From the IMG/VR virus record IMGVR_UViG_2526164669_000023, positions 1 to 49,435 of that record: a stretch of DNA of 49,435 nucleotides; one strand, 5' to 3'. The position numbers and the translations under genes were made by a program. Shown piece after piece: positions 10,827 through 49,435 of the stretch. This stretch comes from a virus. Its lineage: Duplodnaviria; Heunggongvirae; Uroviricota; Caudoviricetes. Numbering within the stretch: the first letter of the stretch is position 1; every line of letters starts with the position of its first letter. The notes under the pieces are model-generated. The model saw only the letters and a program-made list of their open reading frames with translations. It did not search any database and was not told where the DNA came from.

Positions 10827-11960
10827 ATGACTTGTCAAAGTATAATGAGAGATTGCATGAAGATTAACCATGAGGATTTAATTGATCTTATAAAGGCATC
10901 ACTGGATGCGAATTACAGCGAAGTTCGTAGTGTTAGTAATCGCATTGTTCGCGCAATTAGCGCTCAGGATGCTGACTTAGCAAAGCAAATTAAGTCTATC
11001 ATCCGTAAAAAAGGGGTACCATTACGTAGCTCTGGTTATACGGACAGTTTGCCCTTAGATCCGAAATCAAGGATGCCTTTAGTGGAAGAAGTCGAATGGC
11101 CTGCAACGCCTTTATTTCTTTCTGATGAATCACAGCATATTTTTCATGCTTTTATTCAGAATGTTATCCATCAGAATGAACTTATAGAGAATGGAATTCC
11201 AGGTAAATTGAATTTACTTCTTTCTGGTCCGCCAGGAACAGGTAAGACATTAGTCGCTGGTCATATCGCATCCAAATTAAACAAACCGCTCTATGTTGTT
11301 CGGCTTGACTCTGTTATTTCTTCTCTGTTAGGTGATACAGCGAAGAACCTAAGACAGATTTTTGACTTCGTCCCGACAAAAGATGGTGTGTTATTTCTTG
11401 ATGAAGTAGATGCGGTTGCTAAGCTTCGTGATGACAATCAGGAAGTTGGAGAGTTAAAAAGAGTTGTTAACACATTAATCCAAGGACTGGATTCTCTTGA
11501 TGATTCTGCTATTGTCATTGCTGCAACTAATCATTCGAAGCTATTGGATCCAGCAATTTGGAGACGTTTCCCATATAAAATTAGCTTTGGTTTGCCTGGA
11601 CAAGATGTCAGATGTGCTATGTGGGAACATTTTTTATTTAGAGATGATACGGATTCATTTCTAAGTAAAATGTTATCTATCATATCAACTGGGCTAACAG
11701 GTGCTGATATTGAAAATATCAGTTTATCTGCAAGAAGGCATAGTGTTTTATCTGGCAATGGACTGGATATACCATCTGTTGTTTATGCTATATTGAATAG
11801 CGTTGCAGATAGTACAGCAATTCCTTTTGGTAAGGATATAAATTCGAGTGTTAAGAAAAATTTAGCGAAGGAATTATCTAAGTTTAAATTATCACAGGCA
11901 GATATCGGTAGACTTTTAAATGTGAGCAGGCAAACTATATCAGGTTATTTCAAGGAATAA
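10827..11960 (+). CDS. Classical-clade AAA+ ATPase with C-terminal HTH (candidate defense ATPase, IetA-like)
   Basis: Walker A LLLSGPPGTGKT, Walker B VLFLDEVDA, sensor-1 IAATN, Arg-finger region LDPAIWRRFPY; C-terminal XRE-like HTH LSQADIGRLLNVSRQTISGYF. AT-rich relative to flanks. Alternative start at Met11 (10857). Confidence 0.75.
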   Translation: MTCQSIMRDCMKINHEDLIDLIKASLDANYSEVRSVSNRIVRAISAQDADLAKQIKSIIRKKGVPLRSSGYTDSLPLDPKSRMPLVEEVEWPATPLFLSDESQHIFHAFIQNVIHQNELIENGIPGKLNLLLSGPPGTGKTLVAGHIASKLNKPLYVVRLDSVISSLLGDTAKNLRQIFDFVPTKDGVLFLDEVDAVAKLRDDNQEVGELKRVVNTLIQGLDSLDDSAIVIAATNHSKLLDPAIWRRFPYKISFGLPGQDVRCAMWEHFLFRDDTDSFLSKMLSIISTGLTGADIENISLSARRHSVLSGNGLDIPSVVYAILNSVADSTAIPFGKDINSSVKKNLAKELSKFKLSQADIGRLLNVSRQTISGYFKE

Positions 11961-11962
11961 TT

Positions 11963-12538
11963 ATGGTCAGTGAAAATAAAGCTAAAATTTTAAACCCAAT
12001 AATTACTTTATTGAAGCCACCAACGCCAGAGGCGATTCCTGTTGGAGGGAAAAGTCGTAAAAATATTGTTGATTCACGGTTGAAACAACAGCGTGAAGTT
12101 TTATCCTCAGAGATAGATTCCATATTAAGAACAGAAGGTGAAATAGTTAAACATCGTGGTAAGTATCATATAGTAACAAGTATGTTTGAGGACTCATATG
12201 CACCATCGTTTATACCAGATTCATTATTCTGTCCCAGTGTTGAATGTAAGATAGTTGCACCAGCATACAATGGATATTTAATTGAGGTCAATAGCAATGC
12301 TTTATTGAAGTTGAAAAATAAAATTAATAATGCAAAAGCTATTACTGATCTTGTGGATATTTCAAGGGTTAGAAGTGTTAGTCTTTTTGATTCATCTTGT
12401 ACATTGCGAAATAGTAGCCTTGATTCGCTCTGGAATACAGTTAAGGCTTTGAATACATTTCAATTTAATATGTGGCTTATGCCTTTTTTTGATGAGCTTT
12501 CTAGAGAGTCTGTAGTTTCAACTTTTTTAAATTTTTAA
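11963..12538 (+). CDS. Hypothetical protein, middle gene of ATPase/protease cassette
   Basis: 191-aa ORF starting 3 nt after the ATPase stop; AT-rich; no motif I recognise. Confidence 0.55.
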   Translation: MVSENKAKILNPIITLLKPPTPEAIPVGGKSRKNIVDSRLKQQREVLSSEIDSILRTEGEIVKHRGKYHIVTSMFEDSYAPSFIPDSLFCPSVECKIVAPAYNGYLIEVNSNALLKLKNKINNAKAITDLVDISRVRSVSLFDSSCTLRNSSLDSLWNTVKALNTFQFNMWLMPFFDELSRESVVSTFLNF

Positions 12539-12741
12539 ATGATGGTATCATCGCTTTTGGTTATTCAGATTTTGACATAAAAACTATAAATCAAGATGCT
12601 GCTGTTGGCGGGGATAATATAGTCATAGTTCCACCGTTACTTATTGAAGCGATAAAAAAGTATCGTAAATCAGGTCAAGCATCCGTTACCGTCACTGTAG
12701 AGACTAAAGATAGTTTAAACAGGATACTGAATAGCAGTGCT

Positions 12742-14229
12742 GTGTATCGTATAGATCCTGTATCACCGCTAAACGTAACAGATACTCCTCCTGGTAATGG
12801 GGCTGAACCTGTTCCACCAATATTGGGGGATAAGAAAATGCCAACTGTAGTTGTAATTGATGGTGGGTGTAATGCGAAATCATATTCAAATTTAAATATA
12901 TATAAACTAAATCCGCTAATTCCAGATCATGATGCAGATTGTAAACATGGTAATAAAGTTGTATCGTTGTTATGTCACGGTTATGCTTGGAATAATAATT
13001 TAAACTTACCTAAATTGCAATGTAGCTATATAAGTGCACAGGCTATTGCGAAAAGGGGAGTGTTGAAACAACCAACTCCGGATCAATTTTTAAATTATTT
13101 AAGAATGGTTGCTGACAAAACGTCATCTATCGCCAAGGTCTGGAATCTTTCGTTTAATGAAGACGCTCCTCATTATAACTGTAATGAGATAAGTTATCTG
13201 GGACATAAAATCAGTTTGTTGGCTCGAGAATTTGGTATTCTGCCTGTAATATCTATCGGTAATGTTTCAAAGAACGAAAAACAAAAAAATCTTTGTCCGC
13301 CCGCAGATTGTGAGTCAGGAATTACAGTAAGTGGGAGAACGGCCAATCATGAAGGAATGCCTTCAGATGGCTGTCCTTTAAGTCGGAAAGGCCCTGCTCC
13401 TGCAGGAATGAAAAAACCTGAGTTATCATGGTTTTCTCGAGTTAGGGTGATAGGTGGAACAGTAGATATCGGAACAAGTTTTAGTGCTCCATTAGTTTCA
13501 TCTATTGCTGCTCATACCTTTTCGAATATTAAAAATGCCACTCCTGATTTGGTTAGGGCATTATTGATTAACAGGAGTGAGTTGCTTTCTCATGATGATG
13601 CATTAGGATGGGGGACTCCTTGGGATGGCGATTTACTGCCATGGTATTGTAAAGATGGCAGTGTCACATTAACGTGGATATCTAAGTTAAAGGCTGGGGC
13701 TGCTTATTATTGGAACGATCTTCCATTACCTCCAGAGATGTTAGTTAATGGTAAATTAGTTGGTGAGATATCTCTGACAGCTATACTAAAACCTAAGGTT
13801 TCTGAGTTCGGAAGTGAGAACTATTTTTCGACAAGGCTCCAATGTTCGTTACAGGCAATAAAAGAAATTAACGGAACGCTAAAAACAGAAAGCCTTCTTG
13901 GGTCAATGAAAGAATCTTCTGTTGATGAGCGTAAAGCTAGAAATGAACTTTCTAAATGGAGCCCTATTCGCCATCATGCAGAGTCGTTTAAGAGAAAAGA
14001 TATAACAGGGTGTAAAATTCGGCTTTATGCTAGGATATATGCTAGAGATTTGTATCAGTATGGGTTAAATAACCAACGGGAGCTTGAAGAGCAAGAGGTT
14101 TCCTTTGTTTTAACTTTTAAAAGTGTATCAGGATCGTCCTCAATATATACATCAATGGTTCAGCAACTTGGTGTTTATGTTGAAAGTGCTGTTATAGATA
14201 ATCACATTAACATAGATGTTAATAAGTGA
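12742..14229 (+). CDS. Subtilisin-like serine protease (peptidase S8) with C-terminal extension (IetS-like)
   Basis: D-H-S triad motifs in canonical order: VVVIDGGC, CKHGNKVV, GTSFSAPLVSSIAA; about 250 extra C-terminal residues. Track start is GTG; an ATG (MPTVVVIDGG) lies 32 codons downstream; in-frame stop at 12616. Confidence 0.75.
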   Translation: MYRIDPVSPLNVTDTPPGNGAEPVPPILGDKKMPTVVVIDGGCNAKSYSNLNIYKLNPLIPDHDADCKHGNKVVSLLCHGYAWNNNLNLPKLQCSYISAQAIAKRGVLKQPTPDQFLNYLRMVADKTSSIAKVWNLSFNEDAPHYNCNEISYLGHKISLLAREFGILPVISIGNVSKNEKQKNLCPPADCESGITVSGRTANHEGMPSDGCPLSRKGPAPAGMKKPELSWFSRVRVIGGTVDIGTSFSAPLVSSIAAHTFSNIKNATPDLVRALLINRSELLSHDDALGWGTPWDGDLLPWYCKDGSVTLTWISKLKAGAAYYWNDLPLPPEMLVNGKLVGEISLTAILKPKVSEFGSENYFSTRLQCSLQAIKEINGTLKTESLLGSMKESSVDERKARNELSKWSPIRHHAESFKRKDITGCKIRLYARIYARDLYQYGLNNQRELEEQEVSFVLTFKSVSGSSSIYTSMVQQLGVYVESAVIDNHINIDVNK

Positions 14230-17395: not shown

Positions 17396-17471
17396 GGCCC
17401 TTTAGCTCAGTGGTGAGAGCGAGCGACTCATAATCGCCTGGTCGCTGGTTCAAATCCAGCAAGGGCCACCA
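17396..17471 (+). tRNA. tRNA with CAU anticodon (Ile2/Met type, ileZ-like)
   Basis: 76 nt; acceptor GGCCCTT/AAGGGCC, anticodon loop CTCATAA, T-arm GCTGG-TTCAAAT-CCAGC, 3' CCA. Confidence 0.8.
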
Positions 17472-17473
17472 TT

Positions 17474-17550
17474 CCGCCACTAGCTCATCGGGATAGAGCA
17501 TCAACCTTCTAAGTTGATTGTGCGAGGTTCGAGTCCTCGGTGGCGGACCA
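17474..17550 (+). tRNA. tRNA-Arg (anticodon UCU)
   Basis: 77 nt; acceptor CCGCCAC/GTGGCGG, anticodon loop CTTCTAA, T-arm CGAGG-TTCGAGT-CCTCG, 3' CCA. Confidence 0.8.
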
Positions 17551-18034: not shown

Positions 18035-19600
18035 ATGTCCAAAAAGAGAAAATCCAGGAGCACTATGGAAACTTGTTTTAAGATCCTTCAGCTCAAGTTC
18101 GATAAGAAGCTGACTAACCGTTGTATCGGACTGACGTTACACATCAGCGCCTCAACCGTTTTTGAGGTTCTTGCCCGCTTCAAAGCCTCTTCTCTGTCAT
18201 GGCCATTACCTGCTGATATATCCCATGACACGCTGGAGAAACTCATTTTCCCGCCCAAAGACACCTCTGCGTCAGAGCTTGTTATGCCTGACATGCTGTA
18301 CTTCGATACGGAAATGAGAAAACCTGGCGTGACGCGCCAACTGTTGTGGATGGAATACAAGGCACAGGCGGGTGACAAAGCGATGGGATACTCACACTTC
18401 TGCCGTTGCTACCGGAAGTGGAAAAAAACGCGACGCCTCTCCATGCGACAGGAGCATCGTGCTGGCGAAAAGCTCTTTATCGACTTCTGTGGTCCTACGC
18501 TTCCTGTTATTAATCCGGACACCGGAGAGATACGCCGCGTGGCAATCTTCGTGGCTGTAATGGGGGCGTCCAACTATACCTATGTTGAAGCGTGCGAAGG
18601 TCAGGACATGATGTCATGGTTAAATGCCCACAGCCGTTGCCTGACCTTCCTGGGCGGCGTACCGAAGCTGCTCATCCCCGATAACCTCAGAAGCGCAGTG
18701 AAAAAAGCCGATCGCTATGAGCCTGTCATCAACGACAGTTATCAGGCGCTGGCTGAGCACTATGGCACGGTTATTATCCCGGCCCGCCCGCGCAAACCTA
18801 AAGATAAACCAAAAGCAGAAAACGGCGTCCTCATCGTCGAGCGATGGCTTCTTGCCCGCATCCGTAATGAAACCTTCCACACGCTCAGGGCGCTGAATGC
18901 ACGCCTTCGGGAGTTGCTGACGGACATGAATAACCGACCAATGAAGGGATACGGTAATCAAACCCGCGCAGAACGCTTCCGCATGCTGGATGCACCAGCA
19001 CTCTCTCCGCTGCCTCTGGAGCCTTATGAATACACGGAATACAAAGCCGTGAAGGTTGGCCCTGACTACCACGTTGAATATGCCCGTCACTGGTACTCCG
19101 TTCCACACGAACTGGTCGGTCAGCGTCTGTCACTGAAGGTGGGGCAGTCGGTGGTACAGCTCTGGCACAAGGGGCAGTGTGTGGCGCAACATCCGCGCAG
19201 CACACATGAATATAAACACACAACCAATCCGCTTCACATGCCAGAACGCCACCGGCGGCATGGGACATGGACACCGGAACGCCTTATCGAGCAGGGAAAC
19301 CGTACAGGTCCGTCCACAGGCCGGGTGGTTGAATCCATGCTGAAAGCCAAACCCCATCCGGAGCTGGCTTACCGTGCAGTCCTGGGTCTGCTGGCACTTC
19401 AGAAAAAATACGGCCCGGAACGGCTGGAAAAGGCCTGTTACGTTGCCCTGCACTATAACGCCCCGGACAGACGCTTTATCGACAATCTGCTGCGTCATCA
19501 TCGGGATAACGTTGAGCTTCCGTTATCCCGCCAGGGCGAACAACATCCGGCATATGCTTCAGAGCATGAAAACCTGCGTGGTCCTGGCTACTACCACTGA
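18035..19600 (+). CDS. istA: IS21-family transposase IstA
   Basis: 521 aa from MSKKRKSRSTMETCF; N-terminal HTH and DDE-type core; followed by an IstB ATPase. Confidence 0.8.
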   Translation: MSKKRKSRSTMETCFKILQLKFDKKLTNRCIGLTLHISASTVFEVLARFKASSLSWPLPADISHDTLEKLIFPPKDTSASELVMPDMLYFDTEMRKPGVTRQLLWMEYKAQAGDKAMGYSHFCRCYRKWKKTRRLSMRQEHRAGEKLFIDFCGPTLPVINPDTGEIRRVAIFVAVMGASNYTYVEACEGQDMMSWLNAHSRCLTFLGGVPKLLIPDNLRSAVKKADRYEPVINDSYQALAEHYGTVIIPARPRKPKDKPKAENGVLIVERWLLARIRNETFHTLRALNARLRELLTDMNNRPMKGYGNQTRAERFRMLDAPALSPLPLEPYEYTEYKAVKVGPDYHVEYARHWYSVPHELVGQRLSLKVGQSVVQLWHKGQCVAQHPRSTHEYKHTTNPLHMPERHRRHGTWTPERLIEQGNRTGPSTGRVVESMLKAKPHPELAYRAVLGLLALQKKYGPERLEKACYVALHYNAPDRRFIDNLLRHHRDNVELPLSRQGEQHPAYASEHENLRGPGYYH

Positions 19601-19616
19601 CAGAAGGAACAACCGT

Positions 19617-20372
19617 ATGAGTGATAATCTGTTAAACAAACTGACCCAACTGAAACTCCCGGCGATGGCCGGGAGCCTGATACGGCAACGGGAAACGCCT
19701 CAGACTTACGACGAACTGTCGTTCGAGGAAAGGCTGACACTGCTGGTTGATGACGAGCTTCTGAGCAGAGAAAACAGTCGTGTGGCACGGTTGAGAAAAA
19801 ATGCCTGCCTGAAATATCAGGCAACACCGGAAGGGCTGCGTTATCCGGCCTCAAGAGGTCTGCGGGCTGAACAGATGAGGGAACTGCTGAACGGCCACTA
19901 CATAATCCACAGGAAAAACCTACTGATAACCGGTCCGACAGGATGCGGTAAGAGCTGGATAGCCAATGCGCTGGGCGAACAGGCATGTCGACAGAAATAC
20001 AGCGTCCGGTACTGTAGAACCGGGCGATTACTGGAACAGTTGGCTCAGGGACGTGTTGATGGCAGTTGGCTGAAATATCTGAAACAGTTGCAAAAAATAC
20101 AGGTTCTAATCCTGGACGATCTGGGGCTGGAACAGTTAAGTAACGCCCAGTGTAATGACCTTCTGGAGATCACAGAGGATCGTTACGGACAAAGCAGCAC
20201 GATAGTGGTAAGCCAGTTCCCGGTAGATAAATGGCATGGTCTGATGGAGAACCCAACAACAGCAGATGCCATCCTGGACAGACTGGTACATAACTCACAC
20301 AGAGTGGTCCTTCAGGGAGAGTCCCTGAGGAAAAATCCCCCGACAGTGGAAAGCAGCGAAAAAACGAGTTAA
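19617..20372 (+). CDS. istB: IS21-family helper ATPase IstB
   Basis: 251 aa from MSDNLLNKLTQLKLPAMAG; Walker A GPTGCGKSWIANAL, Walker B VLILDDLG. Confidence 0.8.
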   Translation: MSDNLLNKLTQLKLPAMAGSLIRQRETPQTYDELSFEERLTLLVDDELLSRENSRVARLRKNACLKYQATPEGLRYPASRGLRAEQMRELLNGHYIIHRKNLLITGPTGCGKSWIANALGEQACRQKYSVRYCRTGRLLEQLAQGRVDGSWLKYLKQLQKIQVLILDDLGLEQLSNAQCNDLLEITEDRYGQSSTIVVSQFPVDKWHGLMENPTTADAILDRLVHNSHRVVLQGESLRKNPPTVESSEKTS

Positions 20373-22974: not shown

Positions 22975-23766
22975 ATGAGCGAGAAATTGAAGATCGTCTA
23001 TCGCCCGTTACAAGAACTGTCTCCGTATGCACACAATGCCAGGACACACAGCCCTGAGCAGGTGGCACAACTGGTAGAAAGCATTAAGCAATTCGGCTGG
23101 ACTAATCCAGTGCTGATTGATGAAAAGGGCGAAATTATTGCTGGTCACGGTCGCGTTATGGCGGCTGAGGCGCTCAAAATGGATTCGGTTCCGGTTATTG
23201 TTCTGTCTGGTCTGACGGATGATCAGAAAAAGGCGTACCGCCTGGCAGATAATCGCCTGCCGATGAATGCTGGCTGGGATGAAGATCTGTTACGGATGGA
23301 GCTGTCGGACCTAATCAATGCTGATTTTGATATCTCCCTGACAGGATGCAGCCCGACAGAAATTGATGAACTGTTGACGGATGTTTTGCCCGGTACAGGA
23401 AATGAGGAGGAACCGTACACGACGAAAATTGATACGCCTGTTTATGAGCCGTCGGGCGATAAACCAGATATCAGTGAACTGTACGACGATACGAAAACTC
23501 AGGAGTTGATCAGCCGGATACGTTCGGCGTCCCTTGATCCTGATATTGAGAAATTCCTCCTGTGTGCGGCAGAACGTCATACGGTGTTTAATTTCAGCAG
23601 AATTGCGGACTATTACGCTCACGCCCCCGCTGAAATTCAGTGCTTTTTCGAGGAATCGGCGCTGGTGATCATTGATTATCAGCAGGCTATTGAAAATGGA
23701 TTTGTCCGGATGACGCAGCGTATGGTGGAGATCATGCATGGCGGGGAGGAGGAGGAATATGCGTGA
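22975..23766 (+). CDS. ParB-like nuclease domain protein
   Basis: 263-aa ORF; N-terminal ParB/Srx-type motif (LIDEKGEIIAGHGRVMAA); acidic C-terminus; upstream of terminase genes. Confidence 0.6.
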   Translation: MSEKLKIVYRPLQELSPYAHNARTHSPEQVAQLVESIKQFGWTNPVLIDEKGEIIAGHGRVMAAEALKMDSVPVIVLSGLTDDQKKAYRLADNRLPMNAGWDEDLLRMELSDLINADFDISLTGCSPTEIDELLTDVLPGTGNEEEPYTTKIDTPVYEPSGDKPDISELYDDTKTQELISRIRSASLDPDIEKFLLCAAERHTVFNFSRIADYYAHAPAEIQCFFEESALVIIDYQQAIENGFVRMTQRMVEIMHGGEEEEYA

Positions 23767-24697
23767 TGATTTTTGCGCCTTTATTCTGACTCACGGGCGA
23801 CCGGACAAAGTTCTGACTTACCGGACGTTGCGTCGTGCTGGCTATACCGGGAAAATTTTTATCGTTGTTGATGATGAAGATAAAGATAATACACGGCATC
23901 ACTACATAGCTGAATTTAGTGAACAGGTGCTGGTGTTTTCCAAAGCCGATATCGCCAGTCGTTTTGACGAAGCCGATAATTTCGGTGACCGCCGATCAAT
24001 TTTTTACGCCCGTAATGCCTGTTTCGACCTGGCAAAACTGGTCGGGTGTAAATACTTCATTCAGCTCGATGATGATTATCACGAGTTCCAGTTTCGGGTG
24101 GATCGCAACTATGACCAGGCCTATTTCCCGATAAGAAAACTGGATGCGATCCTTTCTGAAATGCTGGCGTACTACGAATCAATACCTGCGCTTTCCATCG
24201 CTATGTCGCAGGGCGGAGATTTTCTTGGTGACAATGGCGGCCATGCTTCGTGGGTGAAACGCAAGGCAATGAACAGTTTTATCTGTTCCGTTGATCGACC
24301 GTTCTCATTCATGGGGCGCATTAACGAGGATGTGAATACGTATACGAATCTTGGTCGCTGTGGTGAATTGTTTATGACGATCGGTGCTGTCCAGTTAGGG
24401 CAGAAACAGACGCAGAAAAACAGCGGCGGAATGACCGAGCTGTATCTGGACTCCGGAACCTACGTTAAAAGTTTTTACTCCGTCATGTATGCGCCGTCGT
24501 GCGTAAAAATCTCACTGATGGGTGCCAGCCATAAACGCATTCACCATCAGGTCACCTGGAACAACGCTGCAGTAAAAATCCTTCACGAAAAATACAGGAA
24601 GAAGACACCCTGCATATCAATGGGGGTGACAAATGATTCCGTATTCGAAAGTAGAGTCTCTGGCAGCGTGCCGGATGACTGCACAACAAATCGCTGA
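23759..24697 (+). CDS. Hypothetical protein, possible GT-A-like glycosyltransferase
   Basis: 312 aa from MRDDFCAFILTHGRPDK; candidate DXD motif FIQLDDDY; RBS GGAGGAGGAA; overlaps the ParB-like gene by 8 nt. Function is a guess. Confidence 0.4.
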   Translation: MRDDFCAFILTHGRPDKVLTYRTLRRAGYTGKIFIVVDDEDKDNTRHHYIAEFSEQVLVFSKADIASRFDEADNFGDRRSIFYARNACFDLAKLVGCKYFIQLDDDYHEFQFRVDRNYDQAYFPIRKLDAILSEMLAYYESIPALSIAMSQGGDFLGDNGGHASWVKRKAMNSFICSVDRPFSFMGRINEDVNTYTNLGRCGELFMTIGAVQLGQKQTQKNSGGMTELYLDSGTYVKSFYSVMYAPSCVKISLMGASHKRIHHQVTWNNAAVKILHEKYRKKTPCISMGVTNDSVFESRVSGSVPDDCTTNR

Positions 24698-42652: not shown

Positions 42653-42802
42653 ATCACAGTTTTATGATAAAACTTTTACCTTGGTTTGGAGTGCTGTAGA
42701 GAGATATTTTAGGGGGGGCGAGTAATTTTCTAAGCTGGAGCATATTGACATATATTATTTCGGATTTGCAAAATACATATTGTTACCATGGAGGAGACAA
42801 GC

Positions 42803-43963
42803 ATGGAAAATTTTGCAAATAAGTTAAAAATACACACAGAGCATGTTGCAAAAATGGGGGTGTTTTGTACAACTGAAGAAACGACAAAACAAGCACTCAT
42901 TATGCCATTACTAGATATTCTTGGTTTTACTCCGTATGATCCAAGAAAAGTCAAAGCTGAGTATAGTGCTGACTTCCCCGGGGTTAAGGCTAATGAACGG
43001 GTTGATTACGCTTTATTTTGTCATGATGTTCCTGTGATGTTCATTGAGGCGAAATCGTTTTCAGAACAAATTGATAATCACTGCCCACAGCTATCAAGAT
43101 ATTTTAATTCAACACCGGAAGTTACTATATCAGCCATTACAAATGGTGTTGAATGGCGTTTTTTTACGGATTTGAAACAAAAAAACATAATGGATTCAAC
43201 GCCGTTTTTAAAAATAAGAATGGATTCTCTAACTCACTCCGATATTACACAATTATTTCGTTTTCGTTATGATAAATTCAAACCAGAGGCTTTACGGACA
43301 CTGGCTGAAGAAAGTGTTTATTTGAATTCATTTACTAAAACAATCAGTTCTAGTCTTCGTGAAGTTGATCTGGAGTTTGTTCGATATGTTGCTAGTCGTT
43401 CAAATATTGAGAGACAACTTAATCAGAGATTTCTTGAGTTCGTGACTCCATTAGTTAAACAGGCCGTTGAGCGCGCTGTTAGCGCAATGGTGGTTTCCGG
43501 GCTATCTACACAACCGGTAGAGCAAACTAAAGAAAATGATGCAACGGATACACAAGTTAATAACGCCATTGTTGATGAAGAAAACCCCAACATAATAACC
43601 ACAGCCAAAGAATTGGAGCTATTTGAAAGGGTAAAACAAATCATACAAACAGAAGATAATATAGAATATAAAGATACTGAGTCATATTTTGGTGTACTAT
43701 TGAATGGTAAAACTAATAGATGGCTGTTAAGATTTTATGATAAAAAATCTTCATTTATAACTTTACCTATTTCGCTTAGTGAAGTTCAGTTGAATGAAAT
43801 AAGACGAGCTCGACTTGATACGGATGGTAAAAGGATACATATAACTAATCCGGAAGATATACTTCGCATATCTGGTTTGATTCTGGATTCATACGAGTAT
43901 GTTAAAAATGATGATAATTTCCGCCGAGGGTCCAGAGCGAGCAGTTTAGAAGAGGTTGAATAA
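42803..43963 (+). CDS. PD-(D/E)xK nuclease-fold protein, HsdR N-terminal-like domain (moron; candidate defense gene)
   Basis: About 386-aa ORF; motif ERVDYALFCHDVPVMFIEAKSF (D...E-A-K); AT-rich, own RBS GGAGGAG, promoter-like AT-rich upstream region with TTGACA at about 42745, own terminator. Confidence 0.65.
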   Translation: MENFANKLKIHTEHVAKMGVFCTTEETTKQALIMPLLDILGFTPYDPRKVKAEYSADFPGVKANERVDYALFCHDVPVMFIEAKSFSEQIDNHCPQLSRYFNSTPEVTISAITNGVEWRFFTDLKQKNIMDSTPFLKIRMDSLTHSDITQLFRFRYDKFKPEALRTLAEESVYLNSFTKTISSSLREVDLEFVRYVASRSNIERQLNQRFLEFVTPLVKQAVERAVSAMVVSGLSTQPVEQTKENDATDTQVNNAIVDEENPNIITTAKELELFERVKQIIQTEDNIEYKDTESYFGVLLNGKTNRWLLRFYDKKSSFITLPISLSEVQLNEIRRARLDTDGKRIHITNPEDILRISGLILDSYEYVKNDDNFRRGSRASSLEEVE

Positions 43964-44003: not shown

Positions 44004-45230
44004 ATGTCAGAAATACCAATTACTATGACCAGTGCGGGGGCGCAGCCTACGCCACCCAATGATTTGCTTGCAAATCTTATCATCAGAGTTGCTGAAAAAG
44101 TACCTGGATATACAGCCAACCTTCCGGCGGGGCTTATTACTGACCTTGCCAGCACGGCAGTCGGGGCGCTGGCATTAATAGACCAGGCGCGGGTGGACCT
44201 TATTAACTCCGTAAGCCCATACGGCGCAAATATTCCGTTACTGATGCAACTCGGAAACATTTATGGAGCACAGAAGGGATTAAGTACAAATACGGCGGTA
44301 TACGTGGTGTTTGAGGCGTTGCCGGGGTTTGGTATCCCTAAAGGATTTGTTGTCGGTGACGGCAACTACCAGTATGCAGTTTCCCGCGATACGGTGGTGC
44401 CGGAAAGCGGGCAGACTGAGCCAGTCTACTGTGTGGCCACAACGTCAGGCTCATGGGCTGTACCGGAAGGAACCGTAACGCAGGTCATTACATCGGTACC
44501 CAAAGATCAGCCTGTAAAATGCACGAACCTTACCGCAGGGATGCCAGGTCAGGAGGCGCAAACGTGGGCATCTTACCGCGCCGAAGTCATGGAGTCCGGC
44601 ATGTTTGGTGTGCAGGGAACACCGGATTGCTTTAAAGCGATGCTCAAATCAGTAAGCGGTGTGCGAGAAAACCTGATTTCTTTCCGGCAGTCGTCGCTGG
44701 GGAAATGGGTTGCGGTTGTTGGTGGCGGTGATCCGTATGATGTGGCTTATGCTATTTACAAATCTGTACCGGATATTTCGAAACTGACCAACGATGTTAG
44801 CAATCCATCTGGTGCGGCAGTGGAAAAACGCACGGTTTCAATAACCGTTTCGCCAGATGTTTATCAGGTACCGTTCGTTATCCCGTCATCACAAAACGTC
44901 ATGGTGCTAATCACCTGGAACACTGTATCTGATGATTATGTTGATCCGGCGGGTATTGCTATGGCTGTGCAGCAAAACGTTGCTGATTACATCAATTCTA
45001 TTGAAGTCGGACACCCGATAAATCTGCTGCGAATCCAGGATATTTTTACCAGTTCCGTCAGATTGTTGGTTGATGCGACGTTGATCTCAACAATCAGTGT
45101 GAGCATTGGCATTAATGGCCATATTGTTCCTCCGGCAAAAGACACAAGCCTGGTTTATGGCGATACCTATTCCTATTTTTCGACGGTGGTATCACAGGTT
45201 CAAGTTAACAAGTATGCAATATCTGACTGA
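44004..45230 (+). CDS. Baseplate J-like protein (putative)
   Basis: 408-aa ORF; position after W-like and before I-like/tail-fiber genes. Confidence 0.5.
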   Translation: MSEIPITMTSAGAQPTPPNDLLANLIIRVAEKVPGYTANLPAGLITDLASTAVGALALIDQARVDLINSVSPYGANIPLLMQLGNIYGAQKGLSTNTAVYVVFEALPGFGIPKGFVVGDGNYQYAVSRDTVVPESGQTEPVYCVATTSGSWAVPEGTVTQVITSVPKDQPVKCTNLTAGMPGQEAQTWASYRAEVMESGMFGVQGTPDCFKAMLKSVSGVRENLISFRQSSLGKWVAVVGGGDPYDVAYAIYKSVPDISKLTNDVSNPSGAAVEKRTVSITVSPDVYQVPFVIPSSQNVMVLITWNTVSDDYVDPAGIAMAVQQNVADYINSIEVGHPINLLRIQDIFTSSVRLLVDATLISTISVSIGINGHIVPPAKDTSLVYGDTYSYFSTVVSQVQVNKYAISD

Positions 45231-45840
45231 AAAAATTCTCCCTGCTTATCCGTTTGTGCAGTACAGAGATGATCCGAATGTTGTTGCGTTCTTTGATGCA
45301 TACAATGAAATTGCTCAGGAATACCTCGATTCACTCAACAATCTGGCATTGCCATGCTGGACATCGGAATCAATAACCGGGCAATTGCTGGACTGGATTG
45401 CTCTCGGGATTTATGGCGTTGAAAGGCCTTTACTACAGGTTTCCGAGGAGGCTATTGCACGCGGCGCATACGATACCATTGAATACAATACAATCCCTTA
45501 TGCGGCAATGCGGAATTATGTTCCGGGGCAGGCATCGTATGTTCCGGATGATTATTTCAAGCGAATATTAACTTGGAATTTTTATAAGGCTGACGGTTCG
45601 CATTTCTGCATTGACTGGTTAAAGCGCCGTGTGGCACGGTTCATTCATGGGAAAAACGGAATAGACCCGCCGTTGCAGCACACTTTTGATGTGAGCGTGA
45701 CTGTATCGGACAGTGTTTTTTCTATTCAGATACCAGAATATGGTGATGGTATAGGCTATTTTCTGAAAGATGCCATTGACCAGAAATATGTAAAACTCCC
45801 TTTTATTTATTCCTATGCAACAACGGTGATTCAAAAATGA
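45214..45840 (+). CDS. Baseplate/tail protein (gpI-like, putative)
   Basis: About 208 aa from MQYLTEKILPAYPFV; overlaps the J-like gene end; precedes the tail fiber gene. Confidence 0.45.
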   Translation: MQYLTEKILPAYPFVQYRDDPNVVAFFDAYNEIAQEYLDSLNNLALPCWTSESITGQLLDWIALGIYGVERPLLQVSEEAIARGAYDTIEYNTIPYAAMRNYVPGQASYVPDDYFKRILTWNFYKADGSHFCIDWLKRRVARFIHGKNGIDPPLQHTFDVSVTVSDSVFSIQIPEYGDGIGYFLKDAIDQKYVKLPFIYSYATTVIQK

Positions 45841-47222
45841 TTCTTGGATTCGGAAATAACGTTGTTTCAGCACTGGCTGGTGATATTACGACGATTCAGA
45901 CTGATATTCCGGTGATGCCGGGCACGGGAGCTAAATTTGCAAAATTGCTTTCTGCCGATTTTGAAAATAAATCGAACGGGCAACGCGTCTATGCAAAAAT
46001 TACGCTTACCGATAATAAAGAGTCTGCATTTGAGATTTGTCATTTGGTATCGGTAAGCGGTGATGTGTTGAAAGTCATTCGTGGGCAGGAAGGAACAACC
46101 GCGAAAGGTTGGTCCCTTAATGATGTTGTGGCTAACTTTGCCACGCGTGGTTCGGAAAACTATTTCGTACAGATAGCGCAGCTTCAGAGCGGTCATTATA
46201 TTGCGGGTGTTGCTGGCGGCACTGCAAACGCACTGACGCTGGAACTTCCCTCGACGTTTTTTGTTAATGGAGGTACAGATTGGACGCTACGAACTCCGAT
46301 TATCGTTTTCCCCGTTCAGAACAATACCAACGCCGCGACGCTTCAATTAACACTAGGCGGAAAGGTTCTTGGTTCGTTCCCACTTTATAAGGGGAACAAG
46401 TCCGAGCTGGTAGCGAATGATATCATTAAGGGTATTCCTTTGATTTGCCTTCTTGATAGCGAGAAAAGCTATTTCAGTGTGATAAACCCCGGCAATATCT
46501 ATTCAGATTTTGATCTGCGATATGTAAAAAAATCTGGTGATTTGATGACCGGGGAGCTGAAAATCCGTGGTGTTAATGCGCTGAGGATTTTCAACGAAGC
46601 CTTTGGTCTGATTTTTCGTCGTTCGGAAGAGTGCCTGCATCTCATTCCTACCAGGGAAAATCAGGGCGAAAACGGCGATATTGGTCCACTTCGCCCGTTC
46701 ACTATTAATCTGCGGACGGGCGAAATATCCATGTCGCATAAAGTGTCTGTTGGCGGTGGTTCGCAGGTCAATGGTGCGCTGGGTATCGGCGTTCAGAACG
46801 CGCTGGGCGGAAACTCAATTGCTTTCGGGGATAACGATACGGGTATAAAGCAGAATGGCGACGGCCTGCTGGATATTTATGCCAATGGCCAGCATATATT
46901 CCGTTTTCAGAACGGGACGCTACAAAGCAACAGGGCCATGAACATTTCTGGTAGGGTAACACCGTCAGACTACGGAAACTTTGATGCAAGGTATAAGCAG
47001 CGAACAGAGGGAGTGCAGGATGTGCGCTATGGTTCCGAAATGTATTACAACCCTGGCAGCAATGTAATCTCCTGGACATATCACGCTCCTGCGGGACACG
47101 GATTGTCAGGGATATCGATATCGGATACTGGTAAAAATTCAGCGGATAACGTCAACGGCGTGTATTACCGACCGCTTCAGAAACTGATTAACGGCACCTG
47201 GTATAACGTGGCGAGTGTTTAA
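45837..47222 (+). CDS. Tail fiber protein
   Basis: 461-aa ORF directly upstream of a Tfa-type chaperone; Gly-rich C-terminal half. Confidence 0.55.
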   Translation: MILGFGNNVVSALAGDITTIQTDIPVMPGTGAKFAKLLSADFENKSNGQRVYAKITLTDNKESAFEICHLVSVSGDVLKVIRGQEGTTAKGWSLNDVVANFATRGSENYFVQIAQLQSGHYIAGVAGGTANALTLELPSTFFVNGGTDWTLRTPIIVFPVQNNTNAATLQLTLGGKVLGSFPLYKGNKSELVANDIIKGIPLICLLDSEKSYFSVINPGNIYSDFDLRYVKKSGDLMTGELKIRGVNALRIFNEAFGLIFRRSEECLHLIPTRENQGENGDIGPLRPFTINLRTGEISMSHKVSVGGGSQVNGALGIGVQNALGGNSIAFGDNDTGIKQNGDGLLDIYANGQHIFRFQNGTLQSNRAMNISGRVTPSDYGNFDARYKQRTEGVQDVRYGSEMYYNPGSNVISWTYHAPAGHGLSGISISDTGKNSADNVNGVYYRPLQKLINGTWYNVASV

Positions 47223-47224
47223 CA

Positions 47225-47770
47225 ATGTTGCATTTAAAAAATATTACTGCAGGCAATCCGAAAACCGCAGAACAATATCAGATGACAAAACAACATGGTA
47301 TCACCTGGCTTTTTTCGGAAGATGACAAAAACTGGTATGAAGAGCTGAAAAATTTTGCCAGTGACACCATAAAAATGGTTTACACCGGAGACGGGCGCGT
47401 GGTTTGGGTTGGTAAGGATGTGACAGGCATTGAACCCCGTAACGCCAGTGTTATTGAAGTTCCTGATATTACCGCTAACCGCCGTATTACCGTGCCTGGT
47501 TACTGGTTTTACCGCGACGATAAATTTGTCTTCGACTACAAACTTAAAGCGGAAGATGAGCGCGATGCCCTGTTACAACGGGTCAGCATCATGACCAGCG
47601 AATGGGAAAAAGACCTGCTGCTGGGATTAATCAGTGACGACGACAGGGAGAAGCTGAAAGCGTACCGCATTTACGCGAAATCGCTGCAGGCGATGGATTT
47701 CAGCACCATCACTGATAAAACCTCATATAACGCCATTGAATGGCCCGTCTCTCTGGAAGCCTCTTCCTGA
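47225..47770 (+). CDS. Tail fiber assembly protein (Tfa-like chaperone)
   Basis: 181-aa ORF; C-terminal region YRIYAKSLQAMDFSTITDKTSYNAIEWPV resembles the conserved ...DIEWP... C-terminus I recall for lambda-type Tfa proteins. Confidence 0.6.
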   Translation: MLHLKNITAGNPKTAEQYQMTKQHGITWLFSEDDKNWYEELKNFASDTIKMVYTGDGRVVWVGKDVTGIEPRNASVIEVPDITANRRITVPGYWFYRDDKFVFDYKLKAEDERDALLQRVSIMTSEWEKDLLLGLISDDDREKLKAYRIYAKSLQAMDFSTITDKTSYNAIEWPVSLEASS

Positions 47771-47793
47771 TTTAATTTATCGCGAGAAAAACT

Positions 47794-48527
47794 ATGTCTG
47801 TAGTGATATCAGGTGCACTGATTGATGGCGCAGGCATCCCCATGTACGGATGCCACATAACTCTGAAATCCCGGGTAAACACCTCAGAGGTGTGATGCGC
47901 ACAGTTGCCGATGTGGTGACAGGAAACTGTGGTGCAGGCGCAGCAGAGCGCGAAACAGCACAGGGACGAGGCGCAATGGATAGTTGATGATCTGAAGGGA
48001 AGCAATGCTTCCACGACAAAAAAGGTCTGGCGCAACTCTGTAGTGATACAGACAACGACAGCGAAGAACTGGCAGCCACGCCAAAGGCTGTCAAAACCGT
48101 CACGGACGAGACGAAAACAAAAGCGCCACTGGACAGCCCTGCGTTCACCGTCACGTCAGAACTTATCGCCGTGGGAAAGGATGCCAGAAAGCGGGAAATC
48201 GAGGTGTGGAGCACAGAACAGGAAGCGCAGCCGTTCACGTTCGAATGGAACGGTCGCACCTGGAATGCTGGCCCCGACTCAATGGCTCGTCTTTATCCGG
48301 CAGTAATGGCATCAAAGTCTGACACAGCGCGAAAAACCATGGTATGGGGCGATGCGGAAAACCAGCAGGTGAAGCTGTCAATGCCGGAACCGGAAGAACT
48401 GGCAGCAGCAATGGCGCAGGCTGTTGTTGAACGCAATGACGAGATTTATCGCCGTCAGCGAGAGAAGAAAGAAGCGTTAGACACTCTGGAGGATTTAGAT
48501 GCGATACGAGCATTTAATGTTGAGTAA
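47794..48527 (+). pseudogene. Degraded lambda-type side tail fiber (stf-like) remnant
   Basis: 33-codon ORF MSVVISGALIDGAGIPMYGCHITLKSRVNTSEV resembles the Stf N-terminus and ends at a stop; a shifted frame carries the collar motif SEELAATPKAVKTVTDETKTKAPLDSPAF and continues as the 48171-48527 ORF. Confidence 0.45.
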
Positions 48528-48763
48528 CGAATAGGTCGCAGTGAGTTGTTCTGGTATCTGAAGAATGAGGCTCCGGTTGCTGGCTGCAGTCGGAGGTTTA
48601 TGATGTGTACTCTCACATTGTTGAAGAAATCAATTGCGCAATTGGAGAGCAGGAACGTAAGAAAACAAGAGAAAGTCTACAATCGCTTGTAGGGTGTCAC
48701 TTCTTGATTTTTTCATAAATTTTATGATAAAATCATGAAGTAAAAGTGATGGGAGAAACTTTC

Positions 48764-49435
48764 ATGAATATGCCTCATTGTGTTCTGCATACAGGAATTG
48801 ATTCGGATTTTGTACTTAGTAAACTGGGCTTTACAGAAAATGATATTCGCGATGCGTTAATGTCTGCTTTATACGAGCGACGCAAATCCAGTAAGCTCCA
48901 CCCTAAAGTGGATGCTGGATTCCGCTTTTGGAGTGAGATGGTTGCCGCGCTTCGCCGTATTCTGATTGGTAAGGGTAACGGCTGGTCTTCTGAAGTAGTC
49001 AATCGCATGGAAATGGTCGTTAATTCAAGCAAAGGGGTTAATCTGATTATTACCTCAGGTGACGGACATACCGGGCGTCCTGATGGATTGCCTAAAACCA
49101 AAAATGCAAAGGGAGAGGCAACTCGCTCGATTGTTCACAACAATCCGGGTACATTCGATATGTTCCAAGCAGATACCTTACATTCAGGCAAAGCTGAGAT
49201 CACGCCGATAGATAGCACCCGAACTTATATCGTTCTGTATTATTATGATGCGGCAAATAAAGAAATTCGCTGTGAGGTGTCGTATCCGGTAGGGATGGTG
49301 AATCAGGACGGATTTGCCAGAGTAAGCGCGTGGAGTGAGCGAATTATTTTAGCTCCTCTGCAATTTGAAGGTGCGGATATTTTCCCTGAACAGGATTTTG
49401 ATGATGACATATCAATTTCAGTTGAAAGCAAATGA
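48764..49435 (+). CDS. Hypothetical protein (accessory gene at prophage right end)
   Basis: About 223 aa from MNMPHCVLHTGIDSDF; RBS GGGAGA; sigma70-like promoter (TTGATT ... TGATAAAAT) at about 48700-48735; stop is the last codon of the window. Confidence 0.55.
   Translation: MNMPHCVLHTGIDSDFVLSKLGFTENDIRDALMSALYERRKSSKLHPKVDAGFRFWSEMVAALRRILIGKGNGWSSEVVNRMEMVVNSSKGVNLIITSGDGHTGRPDGLPKTKNAKGEATRSIVHNNPGTFDMFQADTLHSGKAEITPIDSTRTYIVLYYYDAANKEIRCEVSYPVGMVNQDGFARVSAWSERIILAPLQFEGADIFPEQDFDDDISISVESK

Follow-up and report, generated by a model that had tools for sequence, protein, structure and literature searches.

Among the closest described systems is laboratory lambda. In lambda PaPa, stf is split by a frameshift into orf-401 and orf-314 (the gene is intact in Ur-lambda), through which the phage has no side fibres and is still viable (PMC12617516). 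The locus described here resembles this case in that an accessory fibre gene has been inactivated and another adsorption device kept (PMC12617516), and the remnant shares the N-terminal domain family and the collar motif of lambda stf. The two differ in the extent of the damage and in their surroundings. Lambda PaPa carries a single frameshift and retains the whole coding sequence together with Tfa, whereas around 88% of the gene is deleted here and the downstream gene is truncated and fused to what is left. The downstream partner is a Caudo_TAP-type Tfa in lambda versus a DUF4376 protein here, and the lambda-type tail contrasts with a contractile tail with baseplate.

The Rac prophage of K-12 (stfR-tfaR-pinR) occupies the same chromosomal site, and its early genes bear the same names (intR, recET, kilR, racR, ydaS/T). 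StfR has the N-terminal domain (41% identity over 123 aa) and the collar motif in common with the prophage family treated here, but stfR is annotated as one undisrupted CDS of 1,120 aa, with a Tfa-family gene and the recombinase gene pinR downstream, and its fibre shaft and tip as well as its partner gene are unrelated. The tail3/tail4 genes of Rac-SA53 and the stf/DUF4376 pair of ETEC1716 belong to the same prophage family, with the same site beside uspF and the same gene order (ttcA was seen only at the left end of the window, i.e., the complete stretch of 49,435 nucleotides that was analysed). Those loci are intact, while the window keeps 365 nt of stf (out of 3,135 in ETEC1716) and 386 nt of the DUF4376 gene. 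The same four-gene arrangement is found in phiP27 (L54-L57) at the right end of the genome, beside attR, with 77% identity between L57 and the portion of the remnant that stems from DUF4376; the phiP27 cassette is intact, with a short Stf-type fibre of 490 aa, and the phage backbone is otherwise different. Finally, chaperone activity on the fibre is documented for DUF4376 proteins of the Alteromonas phages V22 and A5, which are encoded beside fibre genes (PMC7289586, PMC10579305). Like the E. coli proteins, V22 gp27 and A5 gp9 are encoded directly after the fibre gene and carry a C-terminal DUF4376 domain, yet this Pfam domain alone is in common, and the gene in the window is truncated. The region at 47794-48527 very probably represents a non-functional relic of a second host-recognition module in a contractile-tailed temperate phage of the Rac family.

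The prophage and its intact relatives

The window corresponds, at 99.998% identity, to a Rac-family prophage of E. coli OkiPb01675 (NZ_AP042478.1) located at ttcA/uspF, a single base being the sole difference in the 48.8 kb compared. In OkiPb01675, the prophage spans ttcA/intR to uspF/ompN, with its right end abutting uspF-ompN-nifJ, and this integration site is the one held by the cryptic Rac prophage in K-12. The early genes are lambdoid and bear Rac names (intR, xisR, recET, kilR, sieB, racR, ydaS/T/U/V). The late region is not lambda-like: matches to a tail sheath (phrog_205, E = 1.7e-52), a baseplate hub and Baseplate_J point to a contractile tail, and over 83% of the 23-kb structural region the prophage has 95.6% identity to Escherichia phage Rac-SA53, which the literature searched mentions only in passing. 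A further record, PP818812.1 ('Actinobacillus phage vB_Apl-pPE4'), shows 96% identity to the E. coli prophage over 89% of this region; its named host, Actinobacillus, looks doubtful.

In intact relatives, the baseplate genes are followed by a fibre gene, its Tfa gene, a gene for a long fibre (~1,044-1,061 aa) in which a collar repeat accompanies the lambda-Stf N-terminal domain, and a gene for a DUF4376 protein (187-190 aa). These four genes correspond to tail1-tail4 in phage Rac-SA53 (KU052037) and to L54-L57 in phiP27. In the intact loci of Rac-SA53 and ETEC1716, stf measures 3,135-3,186 nt and the DUF4376 gene 564-573 nt. At the same site in ETEC1716, the Tfa gene precedes a 3,135-nt gene (1,044 aa; WP_001384004.1), whose product is annotated as 'prophage tail fiber N-terminal domain-containing protein', and then a 573-nt DUF4376 gene (WP_213763168.1). 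E. coli C7 carries a short Stf allele (477 aa) and a DUF4376 gene, behind which it has the downstream genes of the window. By analogy with the Alteromonas proteins, the DUF4376 protein is probably the chaperone of the long fibre.

The ETEC1716 fibre comprises PF08400 (1-134) and Phage_fiber_2 according to Pfam. Its identity to lambda orf-401 is 43% in the N-terminal 123 residues and 45% in the collar region; for K-12 StfR, the corresponding values are 41% and 44%. The rest of the fibre has no match to lambda orf-401 (the first 401 lambda residues were compared) or to K-12 StfR. Given these identities, 'lambda-type side tail fibre' is a fair name for its N-terminal third. The ETEC1716 DUF4376 protein shows no significant similarity to TfaR. 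The K-12 comparison was made directly with MG1655 stfR; a match labelled 'DH5alpha' (NZ_CP026085.1) was rejected as K-12 stfR, as its annotation shows the full Rac-SA53-like cassette. This 4.83-Mb record, labelled E. coli DH5alpha, has an intact stf of 3,141 nt along with a DUF4376 gene adjoining uspF, unlike MG1655, which has stfR-tfaR-pinR at the uspF-side site; the label or the assembly of NZ_CP026085.1 may be wrong.

The first two members of the cassette are retained in the window (Table 1), downstream of a baseplate J-like gene (44004-45230) and a gene in the gpI position (45214-45840). The first fibre is the counterpart of tail1 in Rac-SA53 and is matched by PHROG tail-fibre families up to the profile end (phrog_6859, 111-346/346). 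The Tfa gene differs in 4 of 543 bases from that of the EC11-type prophage, the second carrier of the remnant allele (see below). A preliminary description of the region, made from the sequence without database searches, had placed a functional fibre/Tfa pair next to the decayed gene. This assignment is supported as far as homology can tell, since both genes appear intact: the fibre match extends to the end of its profile, and the Tfa match covers nearly all of Caudo_TAP. With this pair, the phage may still adsorb, as laboratory lambda does without side fibres.

Table 1. Features of the fibre region, in window coordinates; stf positions refer to ETEC1716.
Feature	Position	Strand	Evidence and annotation
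First-set tail fibre gene, 461 aa	45837..47222	+	Single ORF, apparently intact; PGAP CDS WP_000600271.1
Tfa, tail fibre assembly gene for the first fibre, 181 aa	47225..47770	+	Apparently intact; PF02413 Caudo_TAP, E = 6.4e-22, profile 2-129/131
33-codon ORF and TGA, start of stf	47794..47895	+	PF08400 positions 1-33, E = 3.9e-11; PGAP WP_369698927.1
Stf fragment A, stf nt 1-140 (codons 1-46)	47794..47932	+	134/140 identities (96%), blastn against ETEC1716
Stf fragment B, stf nt 332-351, 20-nt island between the 191-nt and 303-nt deletions	47933..47952	+	
Stf fragment C, stf nt 644-861, end of coiled coil and collar	47942..48158	+	208/218 identities, one gap; first 11 nt are the repeat AGCAGAGCGCG, beyond which 47953-48158 equals stf nt 655-861 at 95% identity
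Chimeric ORF, Stf collar and DUF4376, 166 aa, CTG start	48027..48527	+	PGAP WP_050552954.1
Junction of the 2.5-kb deletion, CGTTCACCGTCACGTCA, 17 nt	48142..48158	+	Two blastn HSPs overlap here
3' two thirds of the DUF4376 gene	48159..48527	+	PF14301, E = 1.6e-13, profile 3-104/106

Lesions and fusion in the stf remnant

The surviving parts of stf are 95-96% identical at the DNA level to the intact 3,135-nt gene of ETEC1716, a similarity far above chance. The reading of the region as a decayed lambda-type side tail fibre gene stands. Five lesions separate it from this reference: two 1-nt deletions and deletions of 191 nt, 303 nt and ~2.5 kb, the sizes being estimates, as they are measured against ETEC1716 instead of the parent allele, with identity to this reference of 95-96% for stf and 80% for DUF4376.

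The first lesion, the loss of one G of GTGGTG at 47892/47893, results in a TGA at codon 34 and ends the Stf-like ORF of 33 codons, as the preliminary description had noticed. Of the 134 positions of PF08400, 1-33 lie within this ORF, 13 more codons follow out of frame, and the remainder (stf nt 141-331) is deleted. Taken together, the 33 residues and the 13 Stf-derived residues beyond the frameshift show 51% identity to the first 39 residues of lambda Stf/orf-401. Fragment A closes with an exact match of 23 nt (47910-47932, stf 118-140), and its end forms the left edge of the second lesion, an out-of-frame deletion of 191 nt (stf nt 141-331). The junction falls in GTGG, inside an imperfect 11-nt repeat (GGAAACTGTGG / GGAAATGGTGG). 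Fragment B contains an exact match of 19 nt (47934-47952, stf 333-351) within a blastn HSP that aligns 47921-47955 to stf 320-354. It is followed by the third lesion, an in-frame deletion of 303 nt (stf nt 352-654) flanked by the perfect 11-nt direct repeats listed for fragment C, which corresponds to 101 codons of an Ala-rich coiled coil. A natural short allele was considered as an explanation of this deletion and rejected: with a synthetic junction query, all matches listed span 501 nt in two pieces, and no intact allele without the 303 nt occurs among them.

The fourth lesion is a G lost at 48018/48019, by which ACAGAAAAAGG becomes ACAAAAAAGG. Further on, the collar motif SEELAATPKAVKTVTDETKTKAPLDSP (48060-48140) lies in a frame that differs from that of the 33-codon ORF. 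It is recognised as PF03406 Phage_fiber_2 (E = 5.7e-10, profile 9-40/42), and the collar (…LAATPKAVK…KAPLDSP…) is 64% identical over 33 aa to residues 363-395 of lambda orf-401. The similarity to lambda Stf and StfR by which the preliminary description proposed to check its reading is found in both the N-terminal domain and the collar.

The fifth lesion is a deletion of 2,492 nt across a 17-nt near-repeat, which fuses Stf in phase to residue 63 of the DUF4376 protein. It takes Stf from residue 282-287 (the crossover lies within the shared repeat) to its end, including the receptor-binding end, together with the start codon and the first 62 codons of the DUF4376 gene. The junction sequence matches both parents, i.e., stf nt 845-861 (AFTGTP) and DUF4376 gene nt 188-204 (PFTVTP), with CGTTCACCG(G/T)CACG(C/T)C as consensus. 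Both parental junction positions are second codon positions, so that Stf …KAPLDSPAF runs in frame into DUF4376 TVT(S)ELIA…. All three larger deletions are located at direct repeats with perfect stretches of 4-11 nt, and may have arisen by slippage or illegitimate recombination at these short repeats. The proposed loss of a long central repeat region is too narrow. The missing sequence comprises most of the N-terminal domain, the 101 coiled-coil codons, all of Stf from residue 282-287 onwards and 62 DUF4376 codons.

The sequence beyond the junction is the counterpart of tail4 in Rac-SA53 and L57 in phiP27. It shows 80% DNA identity to nt 188-542 of the ETEC1716 DUF4376 gene and ~94% to the intact C7 gene over 48195-48524 (19 differences in 330 nt). 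A GTG-initiated ORF of 118 aa (48171-48527) indeed lies in the frame of the collar motif, open to the TAA at 48525-48527, as had been described. It was taken for a continuation of Stf, which is contradicted by its PF14301 match and its DNA identity to the ETEC1716 DUF4376 gene; judged by this homology, it derives from the neighbouring DUF4376 gene, from residue 63 onwards. The DUF4376 domain itself is present, and a full-length protein of ~187-198 aa, starting from an ATG of its own right behind the fibre gene, is absent.

Among the 120 homologues listed from 1,775 homologue clusters in a protein collection, PF03406 and PF14301 occur together in the four best-scoring only; the other 116 are DUF4376-only and mostly 187-198 aa long. 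A longer intermediate such as PF08400 + PF03406 + PF14301 is not present among these best 120 of 1,775. The chimeric ORF had no match in a PADLOC scan. Antisense and alternative-frame ORFs (47792-48259, 47772-48035 and 48235-48513 on the minus strand, 47929-48306 on the plus strand) have no Pfam support, the best E-value of 0.021 being sub-threshold. A scan for promoters and terminators within the remnant gave nothing above shuffled expectation, and an internal repeat scan returned short chance-level pairs only.

No single uninterrupted Stf frame with a shaft and a receptor-binding region was found. As expected of a pseudogene, disabling lesions go together with close homology to a gene that is intact at this locus in relatives (ETEC1716, Rac-SA53, C7). 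The feature is of a familiar kind: an ordinary pseudogene, the inactivated accessory fibre gene of a prophage. In this lineage, the third and fourth genes of the cassette were destroyed by the five lesions. Direct observation covers the similarity to the intact genes, each lesion at base level, the repeats that flank the junctions and the recurrence of the allele across many genomes. No useful product would be made, as the attachment domain ends at residue 33, the receptor-binding end is gone and the chaperone remnant has neither its own start codon nor a ribosome-binding site. The phage would tolerate this loss because the first fibre/Tfa pair remains, just as laboratory lambda tolerates the stf frameshift. 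On sequence grounds, the remnant most likely has no function.

Distribution of the allele and alternative readings

Of 5,426 complete E. coli genomes, 15 have the allele with all five lesions, uninterrupted and in two downstream contexts (five genomes of the window type and ten of the EC11 type). These genomes were independently assembled and come from Japan, China, South Africa and other sources, some with unstated origin. The allele is also found on at least 58 contigs in the protein collection. The remaining matching genomes among those listed show the intact arrangement. In the comparison with related prophages that had been suggested, the locus is intact in ETEC1716, Rac-SA53 and C7, and in the EC11-type prophage every lesion is identical base for base. 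The remnant allele is of single origin and moderately widespread.

The two allele types carry different first fibres (461 aa or 517 aa). The window and the EC11 type are ~98% identical up to ~48255 and ~78% identical thereafter, a drop that marks ~48255, by sequence comparison, as a recombination breakpoint inside the DUF4376 core. Downstream, a defence pair is present in the window, and an adhesin gene of the YadA-like (Eib-like) kind in the two EC11-type genomes that were inspected (EC11 strain). Separately, C7 was aligned to 48194-49435 of the window (1,242 nt; L005 8001-8334 equals 48194-48527), and 19 of the 22 differences fall in the last 330 nt of the DUF4376 gene. The region of the defence pair (Rosmer) is almost identical to C7, another sign of the DUF4376 core as a recombination boundary.

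In both allele types, the fused frame (47997-48527) runs for 176 codons without a stop, which raises the question whether the in-frame Stf-collar::DUF4376 ORF is a functional new gene kept by selection. Its product could be a shortened chaperone or adaptor that serves the remaining fibre, or have an accessory role in the prophage. We regard a functional new gene as improbable. The DUF4376 domain is nearly complete (profile 3-104/106), the allele persists at ~98% identity in two prophage variants with differing first fibres and downstream cargo, and it occurs on dozens of contigs. However, the ORF has no ATG, and three gene callers make three different choices of start (CTG 48027, GTG 48171 or GTG 48204), none with a well-placed Shine-Dalgarno sequence by eye. 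The N-terminal 62 residues of the parent protein are missing and the cognate fibre is destroyed. Moreover, recombination with intact alleles has exchanged the 3' half, and this alone is enough to account for the persistence of an open frame. Since the two allele types diverged, the ORF has acquired mostly non-synonymous changes (5 versus 2 synonymous, omega ~0.7; 2 versus 2 in tfa); the dN/dS rests on 9 substitutions for the remnant, too few to inform on selection.

A related suggestion, to which we likewise attach very little weight, is that the Stf-collar::DUF4376 fusion is an expressed small protein kept through module exchange on both sides (the 461-aa or 517-aa first fibre on the left, the Rosmer pair or the Eib-like adhesin on the right), or that the DUF4376 core serves as a homology arm for swaps of the right-end cargo. 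As the frame is open and PGAP calls a protein, there is a small chance that the chimeric ORF is expressed.

Sequencing or assembly artefacts in a truly intact stf have next to no likelihood. One of the 1-nt deletions does lie in a homopolymer run (A6, 48018-48023), and elsewhere the window differs from OkiPb01675 by one T in a T-run. But the same five lesions recur in 15 independently assembled complete genomes and on at least 58 contigs, and ~3 kb of deleted sequence cannot come from homopolymer errors. The identical lesions in 15 complete genomes mean that these are not sequencing errors, and the artefact reading is effectively refuted. The frameshifts noted in the preliminary description are genuine, and reverting both 1-nt deletions does not restore a single frame. 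Hardly any credence is left for a phase-variable or programmed-frameshift fibre gene re-activated by slippage at short runs: the second frameshift does sit in the slippage-prone A6 run, but restoring both bases still leaves the out-of-frame 191-nt deletion and neither shaft nor receptor-binding domain, the intact alleles are plain single ORFs, and no combination of frames gives a fibre. A non-functional relic of the second fibre module remains by far the best account of the region.

Variable neighbours and significance

Directly after the remnant lie genes that match the Rosmer defence pair (48746-49435 and beyond; L001 7150-8939). The 229-aa ORF for RmrT (PADLOC, E = 1.3e-59) stops at the last position of the window, and RmrA is the next gene in the identical genome (PADLOC, E = 6.6e-143). 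This slot is a cargo-exchange spot, holding Rosmer in the window, a YadA-like adhesin in the EC11 type and nothing in ETEC1716. Just upstream of rmrT, an AT-rich imperfect palindrome (48682-48759, arms of ~20 nt, centre near 48720) overlaps the sole promoter-like site of the region (48704-48733) and may be an operator for the HTH partner. In an Rfam scan of 47200-49000, sub-threshold miRNA-like matches were the only result, and they fall on this palindrome.

A second variable (moron) site is located inside the tail operon. At 42788-43963, between the baseplate genes and the Baseplate_J gene, the window has a gene of 391 aa annotated as 'type I restriction endonuclease', which has no PADLOC match; at this position, ETEC1716 and Rac-SA53 carry antirepressor and hypothetical genes. 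Just upstream of the terminase genes (22975-24697), a ParB/Srx-domain protein and a 'GREB1-related' protein are encoded, the N-terminal part of the former matching a type II methyltransferase model (PADLOC, E = 1.7e-37). The early region holds an Iet defence pair (10827-14229) with an IetA AAA ATPase (PADLOC, E = 5.2e-100). In the window, the gene for IetS (an S8 peptidase; the scan used the intact copy of OkiPb01675) is broken into two ORFs. The T-run at 12532-12537 is one T shorter than its OkiPb01675 counterpart, which is the single-base difference mentioned above and may be a real frameshift or a homopolymer error. Finally, an inserted IS21-family element (ISSso4 istA/istB, ~18065-20372) separates the prophage genes for tRNA-Ile and tRNA-Arg (~17396-17550) from the lysis cassette. 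Expression of the late genes may be disturbed by this insertion, as would be in keeping with incipient decay of the prophage.

The value of the finding lies chiefly in annotation and interpretation, and it will come as no surprise to specialists. In RefSeq, the fragments WP_369698927.1 (33 aa) and WP_050552954.1 (166 aa, CTG start) are entered as ordinary proteins rather than pseudogenes, and the chimera puts a spurious 'Phage_fiber_2 + DUF4376' architecture into protein databases. For host-range prediction, the prophage should be scored with one fibre set, not two. The locus offers a clean, base-resolved example of the decay of a prophage fibre gene, in which a dead allele is carried across module exchanges by recombination in conserved flanks. 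If the DUF4376 core did act as a homology arm, the remnant would be a useful recombination scaffold.
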